From Candidatus Endobugula sp. (GTDB lineage Bacteria; Pseudomonadota; Gammaproteobacteria; Pseudomonadales; Cellvibrionaceae): a stretch of DNA of 64,000 nucleotides. The stretch is taken from NCBI GenBank assembly GCA_047619205.1, contig JBLHJR010000006.1:77-64076 (forward strand), given 5' to 3'. Shown here piece by piece: positions 33,745 through 47,465 of this stretch. The notes beneath the pieces were generated by a model. The model did no database searches and had not been told where the DNA came from. It worked only from the letters and a program-made list of their open reading frames with translations. The stretch's first letter is position 1. Every line of letters begins with the position of its first letter. Made by a program: the position numbers and the translations under genes.

Positions 33745-34911
33745 TTATTTAAAATAACTAATCATCACACCAGCGGCAATCGCGGAGCCAATAACACCGG
33801 CTACATTTGGACCCATAGCATGCATCAATAAAAAGTTTTGGTTGTTCGACTCTAACCCTAACTTATTCGATACCCTTGCCGCCATTGGCACCGCCGATAC
33901 TCCCGCAGAACCGATCAGAGGGTTAATTTTAACTTTCAAAAATAGATTCATAAATTTCGCCGCTAATACCCCCGCTGCAGTACCAATACAGAAGGCCACT
34001 AAACCTAACACCAGAATACCTAAAGTTTCTGTATTAAGAAAACTCTCCGCACTTAATTTTGAGCCTACACCCAAACCTAAAAATATTGTCACTATATTAA
34101 TTAATGAATTTTGCACAGTATCGCTTAAACGATCAACTACTCCACACTCTTTCATCAAATTACCGAAACAAAACATTCCCAATAGCGGTGCAGCACTCGG
34201 TAGAAACAGCGCTACCAATAATAGTACCGCCAATGGAAAACAAATTTTTTCCACTTGAGAAACCGGTCGTAATTGCGTCATCACAATTCTTCGTTCGGCT
34301 TGCGTTGTTAGCGCACGCATAATTGGCGGCTGAATTAACGGTACTAGTGCCATATAAGAATATGCTGCTACCGCAATGGCTCCCAATAATTCAGGGGCTA
34401 ATTTACTCGCAACAAATATGGAAGTGGGACCATCCGCACCACCAATAATACCAATAGCTGCGGCTTGCAATAAGGTGAAATCAACCAGACCTGTTGCGGT
34501 CAAACCAACAGCACCAATAACCGTAGCAAAAATACCAAACTGTGCAGCCGCACCCAAAAATAGAGTTTTAGGATTAGCCAGCAGAGGACCAAAATCCGTC
34601 ATCGCACCCACACCCATAAAAATCATTAGCGGGAAAATTCCCGTCTCAATGCCAATATGGAAGATGTAATACAATAATCCACCCGCACTACTTAAATGAC
34701 CATCAACATCATAAATGGGCGCGTCAGACATACCGGCACCGGGGATATTAGCCAGCACGGTACCCATACCAATAGTCACTAATAATAATGGTTCAAATTT
34801 TTTGGCAATCGCTAAATACAGTAATAACAAACCTATCGGCATCATTATTGCTTGCCCAAGACTCATATTGGCCAATCCTGAATCCAATATTAACGCGTAT
34901 AATTTTTCCAT
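33745..34911 (-). CDS. oadB: Na+-translocating decarboxylase beta subunit
   Basis: [46 protein letters not shown] all intact. Confidence 0.95.
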
Positions 34912-34923
34912 GGAATCAAGCTC

Positions 34924-36720
34924 TTAAATAGTTATTAGGGTATCGCCAACAGAGACAGAATCGCCTTCTTTCACATGAATATTAGCAATCGTCGCCGCAG
35001 TAGCAGCCTTCACTTCTGTCTCCATCTTCATGGCTTCTAATATTAATAAGGTATCACCCTCAACCACTGACTGACCTGGGGCAACACAGACTTTTACAAT
35101 ATTACCTGCTAGTGGTGCGGCAATCGCTTCACCAGAGCTAAGCGCACTACTTCTACTACTAACCGATGAATCTGTATTGGCTTCATCACCTACTTCTACC
35201 TTCACCGTATATTCATGGCCGTTGATATCAATAGAGACTGAACCATCATCATCAACATTAACAATATAATTTTTACCGTTTAGCTTCATGCTGTAAATAT
35301 TTGATGCTTCATCATCCACAGCTATTGCTTGTGGTACAGGCTCAAAGGCTTCCGCATTATCACGATGCTCAAGGAAGTTCAGACCGGAGCGTGGAAATAA
35401 CCCCAAAATTAAAGCATCTTCAATGGCATTATCCGCAAGCACAAAGCCCTTGTCTTTAGCGTGAACGGCTAAGTCTTTAGTTAAGGATTCTATTTCTGGC
35501 TCTAACAAACTAGCTGGACGACTCTCCATCGCTGTATCACCGTTCAGTACTCTTGACTCAAGCTGCTTATCATAACTACGCGGTGCCATACCGTATTCAC
35601 CTTTCAGCAAACTTTGTGTAGCCTTTGAAATCGACTTATATCGCTTGCCCGCCAGTACATTCTGTACCGATTGGCTAACCACTAGGTCAACATTCGAGGC
35701 AATTAAAGGGATCGAACCTAAATCTTCCTGCGTTTGCAGTACCTCGCTGATCACATCATTCAACTGATCAGCAGCGCCCTGCTCCTTAAGTTGCGCCATA
35801 ATACTGCTTAGCACATCACTGGGTAAACGAGTGCGTAAAATACGTGGGTCGACGTTACGGGAAGGCACTTCAAAAGCTGAATATTTTTTGCGCAGATGAG
35901 AAAAATCATCGGCAATGTTTTCCAGTAACGACAAGTCTAATACTGAAGTCTGCGTACTTCCCTCTAACGCACTCACGATAGATTCCGTTGGTGAAAAACT
36001 ATGGCTCAATGACATTGAAGAAATTGCAGTGTCCACATGATCGACGCCGGCCTCAATGGCTTTTAGTAATGTCATAGACGACAAACCTGCCGCTGCATTC
36101 ATATGCAATGCAATAGGGATACTTAAGGATGCTTTAAGTGCAGTTACCAACTCAAATGCTTTATAAGGGTTTAACGCGCCCGAACTATCATTAATTACCA
36201 GTGAATCTGCACCTAGATCTTCAACTTTTTTTGCTAAATCAACGAAATCGACTTGCTCCGCTGCCGAGCTAGCACTATAAATAATCGACCCCTGAGCATG
36301 AACACCTTGTTTTTTTGCGGCTGATACTGCCGTACGTAAATTACGACTATCATTCATCGCATCAAAAATACGCAAGACGTCAATACCGTTCGCAACCGCA
36401 CACTCAACAAAACTCTCGACCATATCATCCGCATAATGACGTGAACCCATTAGACTCTGGCCATGCAATGACATTTGCTGTTTAGTCTTTGGCATAGCCT
36501 TTTTAAGTTCACGCAATCGATCCCAAGGGCTCTCACCTAGATATCGAATACAGGATTCAAAGACTGCCTGGTCACAAGACTCTACCGACCAATAACCTAC
36601 CTGGTCGAGTTTTTTTGCCAGTGGAAGAATATCATCTAGGCGTAAGCGAGCGGCCAATAGTGAATGATTGGCGCCACCTAAGGCAAGCTCTGTAATGTTA
36701 ATAGGTTTTTTATTTATCAT
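34924..36720 (-). CDS. oadA: Oxaloacetate decarboxylase alpha subunit homolog with degenerate carboxyltransferase active site and intact biotinyl domain
   Basis: Scaffold motifs RLRLDD, LKKAMPKT, RHYADD, FDAMND, VDTAISSMS, LKGEYG and EAMKM retained; catalytic motifs altered (see findings). Confidence 0.9.
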   Translation of the reverse strand: MINKKPINITELALGGANHSLLAARLRLDDILPLAKKLDQVGYWSVESCDQAVFESCIRYLGESPWDRLRELKKAMPKTKQQMSLHGQSLMGSRHYADDMVESFVECAVANGIDVLRIFDAMNDSRNLRTAVSAAKKQGVHAQGSIIYSASSAAEQVDFVDLAKKVEDLGADSLVINDSSGALNPYKAFELVTALKASLSIPIALHMNAAAGLSSMTLLKAIEAGVDHVDTAISSMSLSHSFSPTESIVSALEGSTQTSVLDLSLLENIADDFSHLRKKYSAFEVPSRNVDPRILRTRLPSDVLSSIMAQLKEQGAADQLNDVISEVLQTQEDLGSIPLIASNVDLVVSQSVQNVLAGKRYKSISKATQSLLKGEYGMAPRSYDKQLESRVLNGDTAMESRPASLLEPEIESLTKDLAVHAKDKGFVLADNAIEDALILGLFPRSGLNFLEHRDNAEAFEPVPQAIAVDDEASNIYSMKLNGKNYIVNVDDDGSVSIDINGHEYTVKVEVGDEANTDSSVSSRSSALSSGEAIAAPLAGNIVKVCVAPGQSVVEGDTLLILEAMKMETEVKAATAATIANIHVKEGDSVSVGDTLITI

Positions 36721-36745
36721 TGGTAGACAAGCTCATTTAATCTGT

Positions 36746-36961
36746 TTATAAAGTTTTCGATTTTGTATGTCGCATAAAAGCGACGGCAGCGACGGCAGCA
36801 ATATCGGCATCTAATGTATTCATTAGCGGTGCAGGCACTGGCGATAATTTTCTCACCACAAATGACATTAACATGGTCGAAAACACCAGCAGCACCAAAA
36901 ATACAAATACACTGCCCATGCCCATTAGCATTAGCTGAAGGCTAGATTCAAAAAGACTCAT
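36746..36961 (-). CDS. oadG: OadG family gamma subunit
   Basis: Small, single TM (LMLMGMGSVFVFLVLL), upstream of oadA; ATG 36961 after GGAG. Confidence 0.85.
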   Translation of the reverse strand: MSLFESSLQLMLMGMGSVFVFLVLLVFSTMLMSFVVRKLSPVPAPLMNTLDADIAAVAAVAFMRHTKSKTL

Positions 36962-37043
36962 AAGTGTTAACTCCACCGTTTTATTTTGAGTGATTAAAAC
37001 AATAATTGATAGAAATACTGCGTCAGAAAAAACGCGCCCAAGA

Positions 37044-40000
37044 TTAAAGTTTTACCAAGTGAACCAACTTAGAGACCAAAACAGCCACCATTGAAAAATT
37101 ATAGGCAGGCTTTGACTTAGCCAACCACACTAAATCTAAATAACTTTTCAAAGAAGGAAATATTTTATCTGTTTGGTTATTTTCATGGGGTGACGACAAT
37201 AAGTGCCTCAAGGCTTTGACATGATGACTTTCTATTTTTGACACTAAAAATTTCTTATTTTTTCTTTTCCAGCTATCGTCTACCGCGATTTTTTCCATAA
37301 GTTCGTACAACCAAAATATATCTAGCTCTTCACCAATACGGAAAAAGTTATGTAAAACCGTATCACAATCTATAGAAAACTCTTCCGCTATTTTAGCTAA
37401 AGGCAAGACATAATAAGAATAATTTAAAGAATATACTGCTTTAGCAAGATCGAGGCCGACGCCTTTGTTGACCTCTAAACCTACAAGATTATTAAAGCTT
37501 TCTAGATCTTGCGGCGGCATATAAGCCTGTATATTTTCATCTAAGGCAAGCAATATCGACTGATAAGTTTGCACTAAATGATTCACATCTCCCTCTATAC
37601 CCTCTTGTATCAGCCACGTCATAGCTTTATCTAATGGGTAATGAATAGCTAACTGCAGATCCAGTAATACACTACTATCAACAACATACATCAATTGATC
37701 TATTGCATCATATAAATGATTCACACCGAAAATTTCTACAGCAACTATATGTGCTTTTACGAGTGGTGTAATACTGGCTGTATCCTCTTCCAGAACATAG
37801 TTACAGAAAGTAGCGCCCATGCGATTAGCAATATCATTGGTGAGGTAGCTCGCCAATATTTCTTTGCGTAGCGGATGGCTTTTAATATAGCTAGGGTAAG
37901 TTTCCACCAGTTTTTTAGGAAAATAATTAAGCAATAAGGTTTGAAAAAACTCATCTTCAATGAGATCAGAATCAACCAGTGTGTTAAACAATCGACTTTT
38001 ACTATAAGCTAACAACGTTGCCAGCTCTGGCCGTGTAAAACTTTTCTGTGCAGCGATTCTACTTTCTATGTTTTCAGGGGAAGGTATGCAAGCCAGTTCA
38101 CGATCAAGTACATTGTCTCGCTCTAACAAATTAATTAACTGGACAAAACTATCAAAGAAAAAAGGTGAGGTGTAATTTGATTGGCTCAGCATTTTACTCT
38201 GTCTAAAGTTATTATTTAACACCAAATCGGAAACAGAAGAAGACATGCTGGCAAGAAATTCATTGCGCTGCTCATGAGTCATCAAACCATCTTTTATTAC
38301 TTCCTGTAATAAAATCTTAATATTCACTTCATGGTCAGAACAATCAACCCCTGCCGAATTATCGACCGCGTCCATATGAATCAAACCACCACTCAAGGCA
38401 AATTCAACTCTAGCTTTTTGGCTCAAGCCTAAATTTCCGCCTTCAGCAACTACGCTCGCATGTAACTCCGTCGCATTAATACGCACTCGATCGTTAGCTT
38501 TGTCACTAACATCAATATCCGTTTCATCAGACGCTTTCACGTAAGTGCCAATACCCCCATTCCACAACATGTCCACATTAGCGCACAAAATAGCTTTGAT
38601 GAGAGCGTCAGGCGTCATACTTAAATCATCAGTCGAAATATTCAGGCATCGAGCAGCCTCCACAGAAATGACAATATATTTTTTAGTCCGGTCAAAAATC
38701 GCGCCGCCCTCTGACAATAGAGTACTGTTGTAATCTCCCCAAGAAGAATAAGACAGCTCAAATAAACGCTTTCTTTCACCGTAACTTCGCTTAGCATTAG
38801 GGGTAGGGTCAATAAAAATATGTTTATGATTAAAAGCCGCCACTAGCTTAATATTTTTTGACAACAACATTCCGTTACCAAAAACATCACCAGACATATC
38901 ACCAATACCGACAACCGAAATGGCATCGTTATCAATATTTTTTCCGCTTTCTGAAAATAAGCGTTTTGCCGACTGCCATGTGCCCTTTGCCGTAATACCC
39001 ATTTTTTTATGGTCATAACCATACTGGCCACCAGAAGCAAAGGCATCACCTAACCAATACTTATATTCAGCTGCGATGGTATTAGCGAAGTCAGAAAATG
39101 TTGCAGTACCTTTATCGGCAGCCACAACCAAATACGGGTCTTCATCATCATGCCTAACCACCTGTGCTGGCGGTATTGTTTTACCGTCAATACGATTGTC
39201 GGTAAGATCGAGTAAGGCACGAATAAAAATTTCATATCCTGCTTTAATATATGCCGGGTATGAACGCTTGGAGGCATCAATATTATCGACTTTACAAATA
39301 AAGCCACCCTTAGCGCCGACAGGAACAATGACAGAATTTTTCACCATCTGAGCCTTCACCAAACCGAGCACTTCGGTGCGATAATCTTCTGCTCTATCAG
39401 AAAAACGGATACCACCGCGCGCGACTTTACCTCCACGCAAATGCACACCTTCTACATATTGGTTATAGATAAAAATCTCATAAGCGGGAACAGGCTTAGG
39501 AATACCGTCGATATGACGAGGTTCTATTTTAAAACTCAGCGCACTACCGCCATCATCAACATAACTAGGCTTGTAAAAGTTAGTTCTAGTAATAGCTTTC
39601 AACACGGAAAAATACCGCCGACATATTAAGTCATCATCTCTGCCATGAATCAAATCGATACAAGTAGATATTTTTTCTGCCACTTCACTTAAATCGGTTT
39701 TCTCATCGTCAACAGAAGGGGAAAACTTCAATGTAAAGTATTCAATTAATAGCTCGGCGACTTCTTTATGCTTAATTAAGCTCTTAAAAAGAGTATCCAC
39801 ACTAAAGTTAATTTTTATTTGCTGAAGATACTTAGTCAGCGCTCTTAACACTGGCAAGTAATGAATAGAAACATCAGAAAAAAGTGCTAACTTATTTAAC
39901 ACATCATTCTCCGCATGTCCGGAGAACAATTCCGCCAAAAAATCTTCCAGCTCCTTATTTAAGCCATTATTTTCTTGTGGTATTTTTGGCGAATCTTGAA

Positions 40001-40217
40001 CCTCAAAGGCCAGCTGCCATGACTCGCTATCTTTTTCGCTTAAATTACACTGTGCAATAGACAAACCCAAATTTTCTAAAATTGGCACTGCCCTAGAAAG
40101 AGTCAGTTTTTTACCTGTTCCATCCACATACAAAAATAACTTATTGTTTATTTTATCCAGTGAAAAATGTGTCTCACTGATTGATAAATCGTCAACTGCC
40201 GCACTGAAAATGTTCAT
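37044..40217 (-). CDS. Large-type NAD-glutamate dehydrogenase, N-terminally shortened (1057 aa)
   Basis: HLRGGKVARGGIRFSDR, KAQMVKNSVIVPVGAKGGF, DPYLVVAADKGTATFSD, GIGDMSGDVFGNG, EGGNLG, DNSAGVDCSDHEVNIKI. Confidence 0.92.
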   Translation of the reverse strand: MNIFSAAVDDLSISETHFSLDKINNKLFLYVDGTGKKLTLSRAVPILENLGLSIAQCNLSEKDSESWQLAFEVQDSPKIPQENNGLNKELEDFLAELFSGHAENDVLNKLALFSDVSIHYLPVLRALTKYLQQIKINFSVDTLFKSLIKHKEVAELLIEYFTLKFSPSVDDEKTDLSEVAEKISTCIDLIHGRDDDLICRRYFSVLKAITRTNFYKPSYVDDGGSALSFKIEPRHIDGIPKPVPAYEIFIYNQYVEGVHLRGGKVARGGIRFSDRAEDYRTEVLGLVKAQMVKNSVIVPVGAKGGFICKVDNIDASKRSYPAYIKAGYEIFIRALLDLTDNRIDGKTIPPAQVVRHDDEDPYLVVAADKGTATFSDFANTIAAEYKYWLGDAFASGGQYGYDHKKMGITAKGTWQSAKRLFSESGKNIDNDAISVVGIGDMSGDVFGNGMLLSKNIKLVAAFNHKHIFIDPTPNAKRSYGERKRLFELSYSSWGDYNSTLLSEGGAIFDRTKKYIVISVEAARCLNISTDDLSMTPDALIKAILCANVDMLWNGGIGTYVKASDETDIDVSDKANDRVRINATELHASVVAEGGNLGLSQKARVEFALSGGLIHMDAVDNSAGVDCSDHEVNIKILLQEVIKDGLMTHEQRNEFLASMSSSVSDLVLNNNFRQSKMLSQSNYTSPFFFDSFVQLINLLERDNVLDRELACIPSPENIESRIAAQKSFTRPELATLLAYSKSRLFNTLVDSDLIEDEFFQTLLLNYFPKKLVETYPSYIKSHPLRKEILASYLTNDIANRMGATFCNYVLEEDTASITPLVKAHIVAVEIFGVNHLYDAIDQLMYVVDSSVLLDLQLAIHYPLDKAMTWLIQEGIEGDVNHLVQTYQSILLALDENIQAYMPPQDLESFNNLVGLEVNKGVGLDLAKAVYSLNYSYYVLPLAKIAEEFSIDCDTVLHNFFRIGEELDIFWLYELMEKIAVDDSWKRKNKKFLVSKIESHHVKALRHLLSSPHENNQTDKIFPSLKSYLDLVWLAKSKPAYNFSMVAVLVSKLVHLVKL

Positions 40218-40219
40218 AT

Positions 40220-41146
40220 TTATGAAGTGATTTTAAAAAATTGTTTATGTAAAATGAGTTCTGCTTCTGCTTCACTCACATCGATAGCATGAAAAGACAC
40301 TTTTGTTCCCGGCAAACTTTGTGCAAGTTTTGAAAGATCAAGGTACGTTACGCAACCAATAAGGGGATAGCCCCCCATAGTTTGCCGATCTCTCATGAGC
40401 ACAATAGGTTGCCCGTCTTTTGGCACCTGAATGGCACCCATAGAGATCCCCTGAGAAATGATCCCCGCCAATGGTGTAACAATAGGCTCGCCAGACAACC
40501 GATAGCCCATGCGATCAATGTTTTGAGTCACTTCATATTGCTTATGACTAAATTTTTTCTGCGCATCGATACCCGCCGAGGTTTGCGATACATTAGGCAT
40601 ATAGCGCAAGATAATGTCCTTGGGATACTCTGGAATAAAACGAAAAGGCACCTGCTTGGCGGTTTCTGCTGAATGGGACGTGTAAGGTAAAACATCATCC
40701 TTAGCTAGCTTTGCACCATTTTGTGAAAGGCCACCTAACTTTTCTCGCACCACGGTTGAACTACTGGATAATTGCTTAACAATATCAAAACCGCCCTTGA
40801 CCGCTAGGTAACAGCGCAACCCAGACACAGGAGAAGAAAACTGTATAACATCTCCCGACTTAACTGCATACGAACACCAAGGAAAAATTTCCTGCTGATT
40901 TAGCGTGCAGCCTAAATTAGCGCCACAAATAGCCATCATAGTATCTTCGGTGAACACAGCAGAAAAGCTGCCGTAACTGATTTCTAGCTGAGCCGCGTCA
41001 TAATGATTATCCAATAGATAATTTGCCCACAAAAAGGCGTGCTCATCTAATGGGCCACCATTAGTCACGCCAATACTTTGGTAACCATATCGGCCGTAGT
41101 CTTGTATTAGCGCTAGAAAATTAGAATGTACTATTTTTAGTGACAT
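40220..41146 (-). CDS. pxpC: 5-oxoprolinase subunit C
   Basis: IQDYGRYGY, YLAVKGG, DRMGYRL, DRQTMGGYP. Confidence 0.9.
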   Translation of the reverse strand: MSLKIVHSNFLALIQDYGRYGYQSIGVTNGGPLDEHAFLWANYLLDNHYDAAQLEISYGSFSAVFTEDTMMAICGANLGCTLNQQEIFPWCSYAVKSGDVIQFSSPVSGLRCYLAVKGGFDIVKQLSSSSTVVREKLGGLSQNGAKLAKDDVLPYTSHSAETAKQVPFRFIPEYPKDIILRYMPNVSQTSAGIDAQKKFSHKQYEVTQNIDRMGYRLSGEPIVTPLAGIISQGISMGAIQVPKDGQPIVLMRDRQTMGGYPLIGCVTYLDLSKLAQSLPGTKVSFHAIDVSEAEAELILHKQFFKITS

Positions 41147-41829
41147 TAGAATGTTCCGCCCAATTTAATATATTCTGCCTTGCTGATAGCGTTAAATTTC
41201 ACTTTATCACCAGCAGAGAACTGGGTTAAATTTTCACTATCGTAATCAATCAGCTGTATTGGCGTCCTACCAATAATTTGCCAACCGCCCGGAGAATCCG
41301 AGGGGTAAATTGCCGTTTGTTGATCAGCAATACCCAAGCTTCCTCGAGCCACTTTTTTTCTTGGCGTTTCTTTTCGCGGAGTTGAAATACTGTCATCCAC
41401 ATTACCAAGATAAGCAAAGCCCGGCGCGAAACCAATGGCATAAACATCGTAAACCTTATCGGAATGAATTTGGATAACTTGCTGCGCACTTAACTGTGCT
41501 TGATCTGCAATAAAAGGCAAGTCGAGAGCAACTTCCTCACCATAATAAACAGGGATTTGAATGATCGTCTTAGACTCAACACTAGCCGCTTCATCATTAC
41601 AAGTTTTCAGCAGGCTATTTAATTGATTTTTAAAATCTAAACCAGAAATATTCAACACATCAAAAGTAATATGAATAGAGGCATAAGAAGGAATAATATC
41701 GATAATCATATTATTCATCTCCCGCTTAATTTCATTCACCAAATAACTGATGACTTTAAAATTTTCGTGTTCGATGGTTTGTTTGAATAAAATAACCAGG
41801 GTGTTTTCAGAAATGACAACGATATTCAT
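41146..41829 (-). CDS. pxpB: 5-oxoprolinase subunit B
   Basis: IIPSYASI, IPVYYG, IGFAPGFAYLG, SPGGWQIIGRTP. Confidence 0.9.
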   Translation of the reverse strand: MNIVVISENTLVILFKQTIEHENFKVISYLVNEIKREMNNMIIDIIPSYASIHITFDVLNISGLDFKNQLNSLLKTCNDEAASVESKTIIQIPVYYGEEVALDLPFIADQAQLSAQQVIQIHSDKVYDVYAIGFAPGFAYLGNVDDSISTPRKETPRKKVARGSLGIADQQTAIYPSDSPGGWQIIGRTPIQLIDYDSENLTQFSAGDKVKFNAISKAEYIKLGGTF

Positions 41830-41830
41830 A

Positions 41831-42559
41831 TTAACTTAATACATCTCGAATTTTTTGCGCCGATGCAACCGCTAGGCTACCATCACCGTGAATACAAAGG
41901 GTGTCTGCCACTATATTCATTGCTTTCCCTGAAGTGGTTATGACTTGCTTATCGACAATTAACGATCGTGCTTGCTTTGTAATCGTATCTACGTGACTAA
42001 ATACTGCGCCTTCCTCCTGCCGAGATTGTAAACTGCCATCGTCCATATAGGCGCGATCACAAAACGCCTCAAACAATAAAGTGACTTTACATTTATTGGC
42101 AATATCAATATATCGTTGATTATCTGGCGCAGCCATAATCATCAAAGGAATGCCTGATGGCATTAAGGAAACGGCTTTCACTAGCGCTGTGTAGGTGCCC
42201 TCATCGCGCATCATTACATTGTAAAGAGCACCATGGGGCTTCACATAATCAACATCGACACCATGGGCCCGACAAATGGCTTGCAAGGCACCCACTTGGT
42301 AAAGCGTAATGTTAATCAGTTCCGCCGGAGTAAATTTTATTTCTTTTCTACCAAAACCTAATAGATCAGGATAGCCAGGGTGAGCGCCAATAGCGACGCC
42401 ATGCTTCACCGCAAGCGCCACTGTTGAACTCATTATTTGCGGGTCTGAAGCATGAAAACCACAGGCAATATTGGCCATATCAACATAAGGCATTACCTCA
42501 GCATCCGCGCCCATCTTCCAAGGCCCGTAGCTTTCACCCATATCACAGTTGAGTTTCAT
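41831..42559 (-). CDS. pxpA: 5-oxoprolinase subunit A (LamB/YcsF family)
   Basis: LNCDMGES, ACGFHA, GAHPGYPD, YVKPHGALYN, TLCIHGD; start set at ATG 42559 by SD spacing. Confidence 0.92.
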   Translation of the reverse strand: MKLNCDMGESYGPWKMGADAEVMPYVDMANIACGFHASDPQIMSSTVALAVKHGVAIGAHPGYPDLLGFGRKEIKFTPAELINITLYQVGALQAICRAHGVDVDYVKPHGALYNVMMRDEGTYTALVKAVSLMPSGIPLMIMAAPDNQRYIDIANKCKVTLLFEAFCDRAYMDDGSLQSRQEEGAVFSHVDTITKQARSLIVDKQVITTSGKAMNIVADTLCIHGDGSLAVASAQKIRDVLS

Positions 42560-42575
42560 AGAATACATTCCCTAG

Positions 42576-43880
42576 CTAATTGTTCACTGCTTGAGGCAGA
42601 TAAAGCACAATTTCAGGGAAGATGGTAATAATAACAATGCCGATAGCAATCATAAAAAAGAACGGTAACGCGGCCTTAGCGACATATAAAATATTCTTAC
42701 CGGTCAATGCCTGTATGACGAACAAATTAAACCCTACTGGCGGCGTAATCTGTGACATTTCGACCACTAGCACCAGAAAGATGCCAAACCACATCAAATC
42801 TATACCCTGCTGCTGAACCATTGGCAGTACGATAGAGGTCGTTAACACAATGACCGAAATACCATCAAGGAAACAACCTAAAAGTATAAAGAAAATGGCC
42901 AAATAAATAATAAGCTCAATAGAAGATAAGCCCTGCTCTGCAATCCAAGCCGCTAAGGTTAGTGGAATACCGATAAAGCCCATCGCCAAGGTAAGAAAGT
43001 GTGCGCCGACTAAAATTAAGCCCAGCATACAAGAACTTTTTACCGCTCCTAATACACTACTGCGAAACCCTTTTAGTGAAAAACTACCCGTCACCATGGC
43101 AATAACCAAAGCACCGGTAACACCAAAGGCAGCGGCCTCTGTTGGCGTTGCTATACCCGCATAAATTGATCCTAAAACACCAAAAATCAAAGTGGCAATT
43201 GGAAATAATTTTTTCAGTGCAATAATTTTTTCAGTAGTCGAGTACTTGATATCTTCGTCATTGGTTGCATTTTTCTTACTAAATAAAGACCACGCCATGG
43301 TGTAACACATAAACAAGCCGATCAACATAAGGCCGGGGAAAACACCCGCTAAAAATAAGCGAGAAATAGAGACTTCCGCAGCCACACCGTAAACAATCAA
43401 AATAATGGAGGGTGGAATCAACAAGCCTAAGGTTCCCGATCCCGCCAAGGTACCAATAGACAAGGAATCACTATAACCACGCCGGGATAGCTCTGGTAAC
43501 GTCATACGACCAATGGTCGCCGCCGTTGCAGCCGAAGACCCCGATACCGCCGCAAAAATACCGCAACTTAAAATATTCACATGCAGCAACTTACCAGGCA
43601 ATTTAGCCAGCATAGGGGAAAGCCCCTCAAATAAGTCTTGCGATAGCCGAGTACGAAATAGAATTTCGCCCATCCATATAAATAAGGGCAAGGCCGTCAA
43701 CGACCAGCTGGACGCTGCGCTCCAAGAAGACGTCCCTAGCAGCAAACCCACATTACTACTATCAATTAAAAACAAGCCCAGCATTGCCAATCCCATTAGG
43801 GTTAAGGAAATCCAGACACCGCTCACCAACATTAACAGCATGCAGATGGCTAAAATTAAACCTACAATTGATACATCCAC
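42576..43880 (-). CDS. TRAP transporter large permease DctM
   Basis: SGSSAAT, GTLGLLIPPSI, TPTEAAA, ITPPVG. Confidence 0.93.
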   Translation of the reverse strand: MDVSIVGLILAICMLLMLVSGVWISLTLMGLAMLGLFLIDSSNVGLLLGTSSWSAASSWSLTALPLFIWMGEILFRTRLSQDLFEGLSPMLAKLPGKLLHVNILSCGIFAAVSGSSAATAATIGRMTLPELSRRGYSDSLSIGTLAGSGTLGLLIPPSIILIVYGVAAEVSISRLFLAGVFPGLMLIGLFMCYTMAWSLFSKKNATNDEDIKYSTTEKIIALKKLFPIATLIFGVLGSIYAGIATPTEAAAFGVTGALVIAMVTGSFSLKGFRSSVLGAVKSSCMLGLILVGAHFLTLAMGFIGIPLTLAAWIAEQGLSSIELIIYLAIFFILLGCFLDGISVIVLTTSIVLPMVQQQGIDLMWFGIFLVLVVEMSQITPPVGFNLFVIQALTGKNILYVAKAALPFFFMIAIGIVIITIFPEIVLYLPQAVNN

Positions 43881-43884
43881 AGTC

Positions 43885-44406
43885 TTATACCTCAGATTCT
43901 AATTCTAGTGCGTTTTCGGCATGAACATAGCTAGGCACTTTGCCCATCAGCATGGTTACCAATGCATCCAACATGGCAATAAACAAACACGTCGAGCCAA
44001 TCGCCATCGGCATTTGTATCATCCACAATGGCACGGCTAAATAAGTGTCGGTAACATCGGCAAAATCATAAGCCTCATATACCGTAACCGCAGTGTAAAA
44101 TGCCAAGTATCCACTGATACTCAAACCAATGAATATATTGATATATTCAAAAAACTGTTGTCGTCGACCAGAAAAGCGATTTAATAAGATGGTCACTCGA
44201 ATATGGCCGCCTTCGTTAAAGGTATAGGCGAGACCAAAGAAAATAGTGGCTGACAATAACCAGCCAGCGAAGTCCTCAGAAGAGGGAATGATTTGACCAA
44301 GAAGTCGCGCTGCAATTTGCGCTAAAATTAATGACACCATAAGAATCAAACAGAATCCCGATGCCCATGCTGAAAAAAGATAAAAACTGTCTTTAATTTT
44401 TTTCAT
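43885..44406 (-). CDS. TRAP transporter small permease DctQ
   Basis: Four TM segments, GGHIRVT. Confidence 0.9.
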   Translation of the reverse strand: MKKIKDSFYLFSAWASGFCLILMVSLILAQIAARLLGQIIPSSEDFAGWLLSATIFFGLAYTFNEGGHIRVTILLNRFSGRRQQFFEYINIFIGLSISGYLAFYTAVTVYEAYDFADVTDTYLAVPLWMIQMPMAIGSTCLFIAMLDALVTMLMGKVPSYVHAENALELESEV

Positions 44407-44491
44407 AGGAAGATACCTTTGTATTAAAAATTATTTTAAATTGGGCTCCCCTATAGTATAGAAAGTAACAAATAAAAATGCCCACTACTTT

Positions 44492-44524
44492 ATGAAAACA
44501 CGCCCAAACTGGACGCGTTTTCAT
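44492..44524 (-). terminator. Intercistronic stem-loop between dctP and dctQ
   Basis: 15-bp stem, 13/15 Watson-Crick; both deviations are G-U pairs on the transcribed minus strand. Confidence 0.65.
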
Positions 44525-44551
44525 ACTACAAGTTAGAGTGTATCAAAGTAA

Positions 44552-45517
44552 TTACTTGTTATATGCATCGATAATCGCTTGACCTTCTGCGCCAGCTTCA
44601 GCTAACCATTCATCAAGCATAGTTGCACCGATAGCTTGCAGCTCGGAAGTCAACGTAGCCGACGGAGCAGAAACAATAATACCCTTATCGCCAAGGATTT
44701 TAGTGTGCTCTACCGCATTTTTAGCACCTAACGCCCAGCCTTTTTTCTCAGCATTAGCCGCAGCTGCCCAAATAACGTCTTGAGTCGCTTGATCTAATTT
44801 AGCCAACACTTTCGAGTTTACAAAGACCATGTTTTTAGGGATCCAAGCGCTAACGGTAGTAAAGTTTTTGATGTAATCCCAGCTTTGATTATTAACACCC
44901 GTACTTGGTGATGTAATCATGCCGTCAATAACACCAGTAGTAAATGCTTGTGCAACTTCACCGAAAGCAACGTTAACTGGAGTTGAACCCATTAAGTCAG
45001 CCAAGCGCGAAGTGGTTGGGCTATACGCACGCATCTTCAAACCTTTCAAGTCAGCCAAACTGTTAACTACCTTATTTGAATATAAATCCTGCGCAGGCCA
45101 AGGCACGGTATAAAGCAAGGTCATGCCATCTTTAGCCAACTGCTTAGTAATTTCAGGCTTAGTGGCTTGATATAACTTTTGCGCCGAATCAAAGGTTGTC
45201 GCTAAAAAGGGCAAGTTATCCAATTTAAATACCGGGTGATTATTGCCTAAGCGGCCACCAAAAACCTCACCAAGTTGAACTTGTCTAGAACGTACTGCAC
45301 CGTAAATTTCAGGATGCTTAATTAAAGATGCGCCTGAGTGAACTTTAATAGTTAACTTATCGCCCGTGTTTTTAGCAATTTCTTCCGCAAACGATCTTGC
45401 TACTTGCGTTGGGTGGTTAGCATCGCCATAAGGTGTAGGCATGTTCCAAGTTTCAGCTAAAGCACTCGCAGAAACTACCATACCCAGTAGCATCGGTAAA
45501 AGTGTTGTTTTCTTCAT
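44552..45517 (-). CDS. TRAP solute-binding protein DctP
   Basis: Signal peptide, WNMPTPY, LKGLKMRAY, VIDGMITS. Confidence 0.92.
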   Translation of the reverse strand: MKKTTLLPMLLGMVVSASALAETWNMPTPYGDANHPTQVARSFAEEIAKNTGDKLTIKVHSGASLIKHPEIYGAVRSRQVQLGEVFGGRLGNNHPVFKLDNLPFLATTFDSAQKLYQATKPEITKQLAKDGMTLLYTVPWPAQDLYSNKVVNSLADLKGLKMRAYSPTTSRLADLMGSTPVNVAFGEVAQAFTTGVIDGMITSPSTGVNNQSWDYIKNFTTVSAWIPKNMVFVNSKVLAKLDQATQDVIWAAAANAEKKGWALGAKNAVEHTKILGDKGIIVSAPSATLTSELQAIGATMLDEWLAEAGAEGQAIIDAYNK

Positions 45518-45621
45518 GTTGATATCCTCATTTCTTAGTTATTGGTTTAATTTTTTCTTTCTTACTATTTCTTGCCTTAACCAGCCATAGCTATTCAGCT
45601 AAATAACTATGTGTGCTGCCT

Positions 45622-46434
45622 TCAACAATGGCTTACGCTTAAATCCTTATAAGCAAAATCGGTGATTAACATTTTTCCTGGTGCATGCGTAATGACCAAG
45701 GGTAATTTAGCACTTCTAACCGCGGCCTGCGTGGTAACACCACAACCCCAGAACACAGGAATCTCATCATCTTCAATCGGCACAGCAGAACCATAATCCG
45801 GTTGATCCATATTCATAATCCCAATCGACTCAGGACTACCAATATGTACAGGAGCGCCATGAGCTTTAGGAAATTCACTAGTAATGCGCACCACCTCATC
45901 AATATCTTCTTTTTTATAGGGGCGCATCGACACCACCATATTACAATTGAAGTTTTGCGTGCCATTCATCTTGATATTGGTGTCATACATGGAGACATTG
46001 ACACCTAGGCTAATATTTTTTACTGGCAAACCTGCGGCCAGTAAAGCACTTTCGAAGGAAAACGAACAACCTAGCACTACGGCAACCGAATCATCAGCCC
46101 AATACTGTTGAATATCCGCTACGCTAGCAACAAAATTGCCATGTTCAAAAATATGGTACTCAGGGAGGTCGAGCCTAATATCTAGATTTTTTCCTAGGTT
46201 ATCGATGGCGGGGTCACCCGGCTTGGAAACACCCAACAAGGGGCAAGGCTTTGGATTTTTTTGGCAGAATTCGATAAATTCATCAGCAAAGGCCTTAGGC
46301 ATAATCACTAAGTTACCCTGCACCAGATCTGGCATCAAGCCACTAGTGTTATCAACATAATCACCGCTGCGTATGGTTGCTCTAAGCTGCTGAAGATTCG
46401 TCATAACAAAAAACCTATTATTATTAATAAACAA
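45622..46434 (-). CDS. DUF1445/UPF0317 family (YcsI-like) protein
   Basis: QGNLVIMP, NPKPCPLL, LGCSFSFE, VVSMRP, HGAPVHIG, PVFWGCGVT, THAPG; start may be 46404. Confidence 0.88.
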   Translation of the reverse strand: MFINNNRFFVMTNLQQLRATIRSGDYVDNTSGLMPDLVQGNLVIMPKAFADEFIEFCQKNPKPCPLLGVSKPGDPAIDNLGKNLDIRLDLPEYHIFEHGNFVASVADIQQYWADDSVAVVLGCSFSFESALLAAGLPVKNISLGVNVSMYDTNIKMNGTQNFNCNMVVSMRPYKKEDIDEVVRITSEFPKAHGAPVHIGSPESIGIMNMDQPDYGSAVPIEDDEIPVFWGCGVTTQAAVRSAKLPLVITHAPGKMLITDFAYKDLSVSHC

Positions 46435-46477
46435 AAAAGCGTGCTTATTTTCTAAAAATAATATTATTCAAGTTGAT

Positions 46478-46527
46478 TCATAAATTCAAATTATGATTTT
46501 TTCTAGAATTTGATAAGATTTTGTTAT
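46478..46527. promoter_or_regulatory. Two LysR-type T-N11-A boxes
   Basis: TCATAA-N7-TTATGA (46478-46496) and ATAA-N7-TTAT (46513-46527), centres 33 bp apart, upstream of DUF1445. Confidence 0.65.
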
Positions 46528-46574
46528 GCCCGCAATAAAAAGAGGCCTAATATATGGAAATCGATCAGAATTCT

Positions 46575-47465
46575 TTATTGACTGTAGTCAGCAATCACCG
46601 ATTTAGCCAATTCAATCATCGATAACAATTCAGGTTTATGGGGACTCATGGGATAGGAAGCGGTAAAGGTCATATCGGAGGGGTGCCAATCGGTATTAAT
46701 AATGTGTAAACGCCCCTTACGGAGGTCTTTTGCCACCACATCAAGAGGCACTGCTGAAATACCCATACCGTCAACGACCAAGCGTCGACAAACGGCTAAA
46801 GAACTAGACGCGAACAGCCTGGCAGGCCGCTCAGAGCCACGGGCAAATTCACGGGTAATTTCATTGTAAGGTACGGTATTGCGAGCATAAGTAATAATAG
46901 GCCAACGCGATAACGCAGAGGTAGATTGCACCTCAGAACCAATACCTAATGATGGGCTAGCCACCCAAATCAAGGGCATGGTATCGAGATGATCGTTGAC
47001 GATAACAGGGTCTGACAAAGGCCCCACTAAGAAGGCAATATCAATCGCGCCAGTCAATAGTTGCTTTGCTAGGGTGACGGAAACATCCACCGTTAATTCA
47101 ATGGCAACGCTGGGCACATCTTCTTGAAAACGCTTCAAAAAAGTCGAAAGCCATGAGTGCGCGATAGTTTCCGAAACACCAAGACGCAACAAGCCCGAAT
47201 AGGCAGCCTCATTATTTGCTGTGTTAGTGAGTTCTTTAGCAAAGTACACTAGCTTTTCGGCATAAGGCATCAACTCATGCCCCTTGGGTGTTAAAAACAC
47301 CTTACTGTTACCTTCACGTTCAAATAACTTAACGCCTAATTCTTCTTCCAGCAATGATATTCTAGATGAAATGGCAGGCTGGGTTGTACACTGCTGCTCG
47401 GCCGCTTTACTAAAGCTATGCAACTTTGCCACCCAAAAAAATGCTTCTATGCGTTTAAAATTCAT
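46575..47465 (-). CDS. LysR family transcriptional regulator
   Basis: SFSKAAE..TTQPAISSRI..LE.ELGVKLFER HTH; LRLGVSET. Confidence 0.95.
   Translation of the reverse strand: MNFKRIEAFFWVAKLHSFSKAAEQQCTTQPAISSRISLLEEELGVKLFEREGNSKVFLTPKGHELMPYAEKLVYFAKELTNTANNEAAYSGLLRLGVSETIAHSWLSTFLKRFQEDVPSVAIELTVDVSVTLAKQLLTGAIDIAFLVGPLSDPVIVNDHLDTMPLIWVASPSLGIGSEVQSTSALSRWPIITYARNTVPYNEITREFARGSERPARLFASSSLAVCRRLVVDGMGISAVPLDVVAKDLRKGRLHIINTDWHPSDMTFTASYPMSPHKPELLSMIELAKSVIADYSQ

Follow-up and report, generated by a model that had tools for sequence, protein, structure and literature searches.

The 5-oxoprolinase PxpABC (Niehaus et al. 2017, cited in PMC13274462), which converts 5-oxo-L-proline (pyroglutamate) to L-glutamate at the expense of ATP, is known from other species; in Bacillus subtilis and Corynebacterium glutamicum its three tightly coupled subunits adjoin a 5-oxoproline transporter (PMC13274462). 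A comparable set of genes was found in the stretch analysed here, 64,000 nt of contig JBLHJR010000006.1 (the window), which belongs to G000, an incomplete metagenome-assembled genome (MAG) of 132 contigs. Twelve minus-strand open reading frames (ORFs), all in the same direction, span positions 47465-33745, and Pfam and NCBIfam models back every gene call. In contrast to the described 5-oxoprolinase operons, the operon here, as in at least four other lineages, runs on into a biotin carrier and OadB, the Na+-translocating carboxybiotin decarboxylase subunit.

Biotin-dependent Na+ pumps are, to our knowledge, known for only four substrates, each with a dedicated carboxyltransferase. With one of them, the oxaloacetate decarboxylase pump OadGAB (Vibrio cholerae alpha subunit, 2NX9; Salmonella complex, 6IVA/6IWW), the window shares the three genes and their order, the conserved stretches of OadB, OadG, the alpha fold, the docking region and the AMKM biotin motif. 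It differs in the catalytic site of the alpha subunit, designated OadA* here, and in context, since the genes stand behind pxpABC-gdh and not in a citrate or stand-alone setting. The glutaconyl-CoA and methylmalonyl-CoA decarboxylase pumps have a free carrier and an OadB homologue, and so do three systems related to that of the window (G005, L134 and L135); the acyl-CoA-type carboxyltransferase PF01039 is lacking from these clusters, and its only members in G000 are AccA and AccD.

Urea carboxylase (urea amidolyase; Kluyveromyces lactis 3VA7, 5I8I) is related through its carboxyltransferase domain, which is homologous to PxpC plus PxpB. The enzyme uses carboxybiotin to carboxylate an amide nitrogen, whereupon the amide is hydrolysed, and thus offers a chemical precedent for the coupling proposed below. 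Its biotin is loaded by an ATP-dependent biotin carboxylase domain, whereas none of the 12 cluster genes encodes such an ATP-grasp domain according to Pfam, and OadB is the sole carboxybiotin-acting enzyme here. A further precedent is given by the PxpC/PxpB homologues MSMEG_0435-0436 of Mycobacterium smegmatis, which bind a biotinylated biotin carboxyl carrier protein (biotinyl-BCCP), with the biotin "positioned to participate in a carboxylation reaction" (bioRxiv 10.1101/2025.10.28.685139). The carrier in that case belongs to an ATP-dependent long-chain acyl-CoA carboxylase, and no membrane pump is involved.

The remodelled alpha subunit and the recurring pxp/Oad pairing suggest an as yet undescribed connection between ring opening of a lactam and the Na+ gradient. 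The interpretation favoured here, to which we give roughly even chances, is that of a Na+/biotin module associated with Pxp, in which the alpha subunit is vestigial and which is most likely not an oxaloacetate decarboxylase. In such a module, a DctP7-type tripartite ATP-independent periplasmic (TRAP) system would import 5-oxoproline, PxpABC would open it to glutamate, and a dedicated short NAD-dependent glutamate dehydrogenase (GDH) would remove the glutamate formed by oxidising it to 2-oxoglutarate; the UPF0317 protein probably acts on a related isomer. The oad genes would provide a Na+-translocating biotin module consisting of canonical OadB, OadG and an alpha subunit that serves as folded scaffold and biotin carrier. 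PxpBC would take over the role of the lost carboxyltransferase by exchanging CO2 with the biotin of OadA*, and OadB would link carboxybiotin turnover, in either direction, to the passage of Na+ through the membrane. We infer both the coupling of Pxp to biotin, physical or chemical, and the direction of flux. No paper linking Pxp with Oad, or biotin or Na+ with PxpABC, was found in the literature searched, which agrees with the initial annotation of the window, to which the combination was not known as a described system.

The alpha subunit has a remodelled carboxyltransferase site

OadA* (34924-36720, minus strand, 598 aa) was compared with V. cholerae OadA (2NX9, whose residue numbering is used throughout) and with 63 canonical OadAs. 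Relative to 2NX9 it carries the replacements R16G, D17G, K178N, which removes the carbamylated lysine, and H209N. Three of the four metal-ligand positions are lost (Asp17, Lys178, His207 and His209 read G, N, H and N). Other residues take the place of the WGGATFD loop, and His that of the Arg in RGQN (His or Gln among the remodelled variants), so that the Arg residues for substrate binding are gone. GHSPTE reads SFSPTE, and VTPTSQ reads IASNVD, the catalytic, proton-shuttling Thr being turned into Ala. Loss of any one of D17, K178 and H209 reportedly inactivates the V. cholerae enzyme. The protein also falls below both OadA equivalog cut-offs (TIGR01108, 623.5 against 756.5; NF010643, 732.7 against 892). 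It retains H207, and both the OadG-docking region and the biotinyl domain with its AMKM motif (LEAMKMETE) are intact.

The canonical OadAs are at least 97% conserved at 286 alignment columns, and at 62 of them all four close variants differ. The triosephosphate isomerase (TIM) barrel accounts for 37 of these (out of 169 such columns), the PYC_OADA domain for 24 (of 88), the biotinyl domain for 1 (of 23) and the docking region for none (of 6). For 27 of the 62, the new residue is identical in all four variants. An AlphaFold (AF2) model of OadA* (predicted local distance difference test score, pLDDT, 77) shows the (beta/alpha)8 pattern and superimposes on 2NX9 with a TM-score of 0.93 and a root-mean-square deviation of 2.3 Å; its confidence is lowest exactly at the ex-catalytic loops.

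The initial annotation had described OadA as dead-looking and the last step of the pathway as unexplained, and the alignment bears out both remarks, the alpha subunit having no canonical carboxyltransferase site. The oxaloacetate/malate exit proposed there as the last step is not supported, in view of the loss of this site and of the state of the sister systems, in which the carboxyltransferase domain is truncated (L142, L216) or absent (G005, L134, L135) while OadB, the carrier and PxpABC stay together. The carboxyltransferase-type proteins in the G000 assembly comprise only AccA, AccD, OadA* and PxpBC, with no canonical OadA among them. A degenerate alpha is likewise the sole OadA-type protein in G061, a Gallibacterium isolate genome, and in G465, a Halomonas MAG.

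Selection on OadA* and OadB

Four relatives with the same remodelled site, all intact, were found in large protein collections, namely P0002 (89% identical), P0003 (79%), P0007 (60%) and P0122 (54%). None of them has the canonical metal site either, though P0002 holds a Lys at position 178. At this position the five remodelled sequences have N, K, T, N and A, and such free variation argues against a rebuilt metal site.

The ratio of nonsynonymous to synonymous substitution rates (dN/dS, omega) was estimated by the Nei-Gojobori method. Between OadA* and P0002 it was 0.10 overall and 0.07 in the TIM barrel, at dS of about 0.6, and in other variant pairs it ranged from 0.06 to 0.2. OadA* is thus not decaying but kept by selection. 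The idea that it is a neutral spacer which merely keeps the frame open for the biotinyl domain was rejected, as dN is lower in the TIM barrel than anywhere else in the protein.

OadB (33745-34911, minus strand; PF03977, 523 bits; TIGR01109, 568 against a cut-off of 191) is fully canonical. It matches Salmonella OadB (6IVA/6IWW) in all conserved stretches, two of which, of 33 and 10 residues, are identical to 6IVA. Inside the variant clade OadB is 90-96% identical, with omega of 0.02-0.07. The ratio of OadA to OadB divergence is 1.0-1.7 in canonical pairs, mostly 1.1-1.4 (one near-identical pair excepted), 1.6-2.5 between variant and canonical sequences, and 4.0 within the variant clade. Relative to OadB, the alpha subunit of the window evolves 2-4 times faster than canonical OadA.

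These values bear on the possibility that the oad genes are an evolutionary relic that is being lost and has no present function. The Oad system does turn over rapidly in the genus. In G001, oadA contains one stop codon and oadB nine, and both are pseudogenes (G001:C2:45509-48107); G002 has neither gene, and L023 has lost gdh. On the other side stand five intact variant genes, 54-89% identical with omega of about 0.1, the conservation of OadB within the clade, and two further lineages that keep intact degenerate alphas. Because of the dN/dS values, a relic is very unlikely.

Recurrence of pxp beside the Oad module

The initial annotation had proposed a neighbourhood search for co-occurring pxp, gdh and oad genes, and such clusters do recur, in L023 (with a gdh remnant), G005, L134 and L135. 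On the P0007 contig, L023, the same cluster runs from LysR to OadB, with gdh reduced to a remnant. In G005, of the same genus, a 264-aa OadG::biotinyl::biotinyl protein without carboxyltransferase is followed by OadB and by the short GDH and, after an opposite-strand sensor kinase, by DctPQM and pxp(A)BC. Canonical OadA of the same genus is 53-55% identical to OadA* and stands beside a different TRAP system, away from pxp.

Two loci of other organisms, L134 (GCA_041156805.1) and L135, have the co-oriented order DctPQM-PxpABC-OadG::biotinyl::biotinyl-OadB-ELFV GDH-bioB-bioA-bioF-bioG-bioC. Their TRAP system is orthologous to that of the window (DctP 70-72% identical), whereas their GDH is of the small ELFV type and unrelated. 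The linkage to GDH thus recurs even by means of a non-homologous enzyme. The biotin synthesis set, bioB, bioA, bioF, bioG and bioC, is full in both and follows straight after the cluster on the same strand (L134:8916-14088, L135:8299-13515). A non-homologous GDH in the equivalent position, together with the bio genes, argues that GDH activity and biotin both matter to the unit.

A Halomonadaceae clade (P0194, P0392, P0393 and P0394, 58-100% identical) has an alpha* of about 410 aa without the PYC_OADA domain. Its loci L142 and L216 read pxpA-pxpB-pxpC-oadG-alpha*-oadB, with overlapping genes in L216. In P0194, the alpha* of L142 and the one copy translated, K178 is replaced by Gln and the HxH motif by SxS. 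Omega reached 0.29 in the alpha* of this clade, against 0.06 in OadB and 0.12 in PxpC. In Gallibacterium trehalosifermentans a different degenerate alpha is found in the order pxpB-pxpC-pxpA-pxpT(Nramp)-oadG-alpha*-oadB. It has LCEGSAS, H209N, Gln for the Arg of RGQN, and D17E, and keeps K178 and H207. By comparison, pxp genes lay within 8 kb of none of 79 other canonical gammaproteobacterial oadAB loci.

OadA* might also be a neofunctionalised carboxyltransferase that transfers the carboxyl group of another substrate to biotin, perhaps of a carboxylated compound imported by the TRAP system or formed in the UPF0317 reaction, with OadB pumping Na+. The strong purifying selection on the TIM barrel and the new residues shared by the four variants (27 of 62 replacements) agree with a new activity, as does the Gallibacterium alpha, which keeps K178, H207 and a conservative D17E yet loses the substrate-binding Arg and Gln. 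Against this, the metal site of OadA* was not rebuilt at the freely varying carbamylated-Lys position, the three degenerate lineages have no new motif in common, AF2 confidence is at its minimum in the loops once involved in catalysis, and the systems of G005, L134 and L135 manage without the domain. We consider a neofunctionalised enzyme unlikely.

It was also considered whether a degenerate alpha implies pxp as a general rule, and this was rejected, since the non-canonical P0177, P0192 and P0231 are not linked to pxp: P0177 adjoins a biotin carboxylase, P0192 is accompanied by OadG and a biotin ligase without OadB, and P0231 is on a short contig. L043:2331-5617 and L044:6829-9815 encode OadA/PycB-like proteins with non-canonical catalytic positions, although at about 30% identity their alignment may be imprecise; one is near a biotin carboxylase and purine genes, the other near a biotin ligase and OadG, with no OadB. 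Fusions of OadG to biotinyl domains were absent from 401 genomes of the order at E 1e-18, but this negative carries little weight, since the threshold was strict and G005 was perhaps outside that sample. A metagenome scan with the fusion alignment was swamped by the generic LEAMKME motif, and L142 was the only useful match.

A possible link between PxpBC and biotin

PxpB (KipI-like; 41146-41829, minus strand; PF02682; TIGR00370, 165.9 against a cut-off of 145.55) corresponds to subdomains C and D of a urea-carboxylase-type carboxyltransferase, and PxpC (KipA-like; 40220-41146, minus strand; PF02626; TIGR00724, 256 against 230) to subdomains A and B. The solved relatives of PxpC are YbgK (5DUD), MSMEG_0435 (3MML/9YX5; E 6e-38) and K. 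lactis urea carboxylase (3VA7; E 1e-23). Biotin carriers are encoded alongside PxpBC, as the biotinyl domain of OadA* and as the carriers of G005, L134, L135, L142 and L216.

In the cryo-EM work on the mycobacterial proteins, the PxpC homologue sequestered the biotinyl-BCCP of AccA3, and urea carboxylase activity was not detected (bioRxiv 10.1101/2025.10.28.685139). PxpBC might similarly bind the carrier biotin without any chemistry and thereby gate the Na+ pump or Pxp. Such regulatory sequestration fails to explain why a pump without a source of carboxybiotin is kept at omega of 0.02-0.07, or why bio genes and GDH joined the operon in L134 and L135, and we regard it as distinctly unlikely.

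A bolder version of the favoured module, with a small but real chance of being correct, would make the cluster an ATP-sparing 5-oxoprolinase driven by the Na+ gradient through a reversed OadB. The canonical oxaloacetate decarboxylase pump is reported to be reversible in Dimroth's work. Inward flow of Na+ would carboxylate the biotin of OadA*, and PxpBC would use this carboxybiotin to carboxylate 5-oxoproline at its lactam nitrogen, in the manner of urea carboxylase. Opening of the ring activated in this way would fall to PxpA and yield N-carboxyglutamate, from which CO2 would be released, and the adjacent GDH would draw the reaction onward against an unfavourable equilibrium. On this view, the five lineages in which the OadA carboxyltransferase domain is dead or missing would represent successive stages of a single take-over of the Oad pump by Pxp.

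In several independent lineages the transferase is dead, truncated or absent while the pump, the biotin carrier and PxpABC stay together. Should Pxp indeed exchange CO2 with the biotin carrier, a fifth kind would join the known Na+-coupled biotin enzymes, the first with an amide or lactam as substrate. The homology of PxpBC to urea carboxylase, puzzling so far, would acquire a function, as would the binding of biotin by the mycobacterial PxpC homologue, and marine bacteria could pay for an ATP-requiring reaction from the sodium gradient. Even on a conservative reading, OadA* is a clear case of a pseudoenzyme subunit under purifying selection as carrier and scaffold.

A possible pathway-level link

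A number of observations weigh against the Pxp-associated biotin module. We know of no biotin requirement for PxpBC. The strong constraint on the TIM barrel of OadA* is only partly explained by a pure scaffold role. PxpABC orthologues 60-68% identical in the same genus, and the entire eight-gene core from LysR to PxpC, occur without the Oad module; Pxp is therefore not dependent on Oad, which speaks against an obligatory coupling. In the prevailing view, PxpBC phosphorylate 5-oxoproline with ATP (PMC13274462).

The remaining points of this kind concern oxaloacetate decarboxylase itself. Four of six Pasteurellaceae relatives carry the pxpBCA-pxpT-oadGAB synteny with a canonical OadA, and the genes may adjoin one another simply because a genuine oxaloacetate decarboxylase serves the same pathway. 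The canonical oadG-oadA pair of G005 lies elsewhere in that genome and has no oadB of its own, and the single OadB of G005, beside GDH and pxp, may serve it. Contig C110 of G000 (5.8 kb; L133:1-5817) ends on both sides in C-terminal fragments of OadB, which are 85-86% identical to the OadB of the window and 87-90% to canonical OadB of the same genus. One or two further oad operons, perhaps canonical, may therefore be missing from the MAG.

All three observations would fit a working oxaloacetate decarboxylase Na+ pump through which C5 carbon leaves the tricarboxylic acid cycle as pyruvate, either because OadA* works unconventionally or because a canonical OadA acts in trans. Growth on glutamate needs a cataplerotic step, which also counts for such a link. 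Such a pump is difficult to reconcile with the replacement of D17, K178 and H209 in OadA*, with the lack of a canonical OadA in the G000 assembly, the isolate genome G061 and G465, and with carriers whose carboxyltransferase domain is missing (L134, L135, G005) or truncated (L142, L216). A pathway-level link is thus possible but doubtful.

The Pasteurellaceae loci L127, L128, L130 and L131 share the conserved order pxpB-pxpC-pxpA-Nramp(pxpT)-oadG-oadA-oadB with a canonical OadA, and the gap from Nramp to oadG measures 237 nt in L127, compared with 57 nt in G. trehalosifermentans with its degenerate alpha. The relatives' synteny with canonical OadA indicates that the Gallibacterium variant degenerated in place; it is 51-54% identical to their OadA, where about 82% would be expected from OadB. 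In the complete genome G005, oadG-oadA (L028:9024-11137) is 350 kb apart from the sole oadB, which lies behind the fusion gene and before the short GDH (L040:3703-8925). The OadB fragments of C110 are 78 aa long and inverted, with arms 88% complementary, and each is next to one of two paralogous 454-aa ORFs. These ORFs share 54% identity and match a Cache/histidine-kinase gene of G005 at 46-47%, and a 636-aa gene lies between them. Matches on contig C44 were rejected as a second biotin enzyme, as they fall in a single 649-aa frame that probably represents the lipoyl domains of an E2 subunit.

Pyroglutamate uptake, ring opening and glutamate oxidation

The solute-binding protein DctP (44552-45517, minus strand; PF03480) is assigned by homology to the pyroglutamate-binding subfamily. 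Its best solved relatives, matched over its full length (residues 22-321), are the Bordetella pertussis proteins DctP7 (2PFZ, E 2e-84) and DctP6 (2PFY, E 5e-82). The structures of both hold bound 5-oxoproline, for which DctP7 has a dissociation constant (KD) of 0.3 μM (PMC13274462). DctP of the window is thus a close homologue, and pyroglutamate is its predicted ligand. The B. pertussis genes are near a eukaryotic-type 5-oxoprolinase (PMC13274462), whereas dctP of the window sits with PxpABC. The TRAP system is completed by the small membrane subunit DctQ (43885-44406, minus strand; PF04290) and the large one, DctM (42576-43880, minus strand; PF06808, 277.9 bits), which is 78-90% identical in L023, L134 and L135.

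PxpA (LamB/YcsF; 41831-42568, minus strand; PF03746, 308 bits; NF003816, 349.9 against a cut-off of 213), PxpB and PxpC are adjacent, with gaps of 1 and -1 nt. All three pass their family cut-offs; PxpC scores below the PxpC equivalog NF045499 (208 against 500). The unit LysR-UPF0317-DctPQM-PxpABC also occurs without gdh or oad in G007 (same genus), G036 (another genus of the family) and G056 (another family). In G008 the flanking genes are those of the cluster in the window, cytochrome c, DsbA and GGDEF at one end and DUF4344 and HemH at the opposite one, but only pxpABC lies between them. The eight-gene core is therefore a conserved module for pyroglutamate uptake and ring opening, to which gdh-oad is a lineage-specific addition.

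The GDH (37044-40217, minus strand, 1057 aa) belongs to the large NAD-specific type (PF05088, 768 bits; GDH_C PF21074, 229 bits; HM3). Its match to the M. smegmatis enzyme (7A1D, 1611 aa) covers only residues 548-1524 of the latter, so that catalytic and C-terminal domains are shared and the N-terminal region of about 520 residues, which is regulatory, is missing. Within the genus the short form was found only in G000 and G005, the two copies being 67% identical. A second GDH is matched at approximately 39-49% identity in all nine genomes of the genus, G000 included, with a frame of about 1600 aa where the contig allows. The short GDH is hence an extra, cluster-specific paralogue. Its dN/dS was 0.04-0.07 in the variant-clade comparison, and on the P0002 and P0003 contigs gdh is immediately upstream of oadG. 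In L023, the 500-nt gap between pxpC and oadG contains a 60-residue remnant of the short GDH (L023:9264-9425; residues 225-284, 52% identical), which shows that gdh was ancestral there and has since been deleted, recently.

From homology and synteny, a coherent unit for 5-oxoproline/glutamate catabolism, with uptake followed by PxpABC and GDH, is a well-supported prediction. Of the complete route set out in the initial annotation, from TRAP uptake over DUF1445, PxpABC and GDH to a decarboxylase, this part is supported, and the decarboxylase end is not.

Organization of the gene cluster

The cluster begins with a LysR-family regulator (46575-47465, minus strand; Pfam HTH_1 and LysR_substrate), which is below every NCBIfam equivalog cut-off; a LysR gene also heads the eight-gene core in L023, L036, L038 and L039. 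It is followed by the UPF0317/DUF1445 protein (45622-46434, minus strand), a "putative hydro-lyase" of the D-glutamate-cyclase family (PF07286, 210.7 bits; NF003969, 368 against a cut-off of 324) whose solved relatives are 3DB9 and 2PIF. The gaps in this upstream part, from LysR to dctQ, are 140, 104 and 145 nt. From dctQ to gdh they are 4, 7, 1, -1 (an overlap) and 2 nt, and the twelve co-oriented genes with very short gaps between dctQ and gdh that had been noted earlier are therefore confirmed. Further gaps of 25 nt (oadG-oadA) and 12 nt (oadA-oadB) follow.

OadG (36746-36976, minus strand) exceeds the PF04277 cut-off (36 bits against 27) and is below the NCBIfam cut-offs. The distance from gdh is 67 nt to the first GTG and 82 nt to an ATG at 36961 (spacer 36962-37043, minus strand), in line with the gap of about 80 nt estimated earlier. 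The absence of an evident terminator in this spacer was also confirmed, as its one terminator-like element is a weak hairpin of 5 bp, which L024 does not conserve and which folds no better than shuffled sequence (z = -1.2). Scans for terminators and promoters gave fewer matches than shuffled sequence. The ATG at 36961 is the likely true start of OadG (71 aa), being conserved; L024 and L027 share it together with the preceding 40 nt, which contain a GGAG Shine-Dalgarno sequence.

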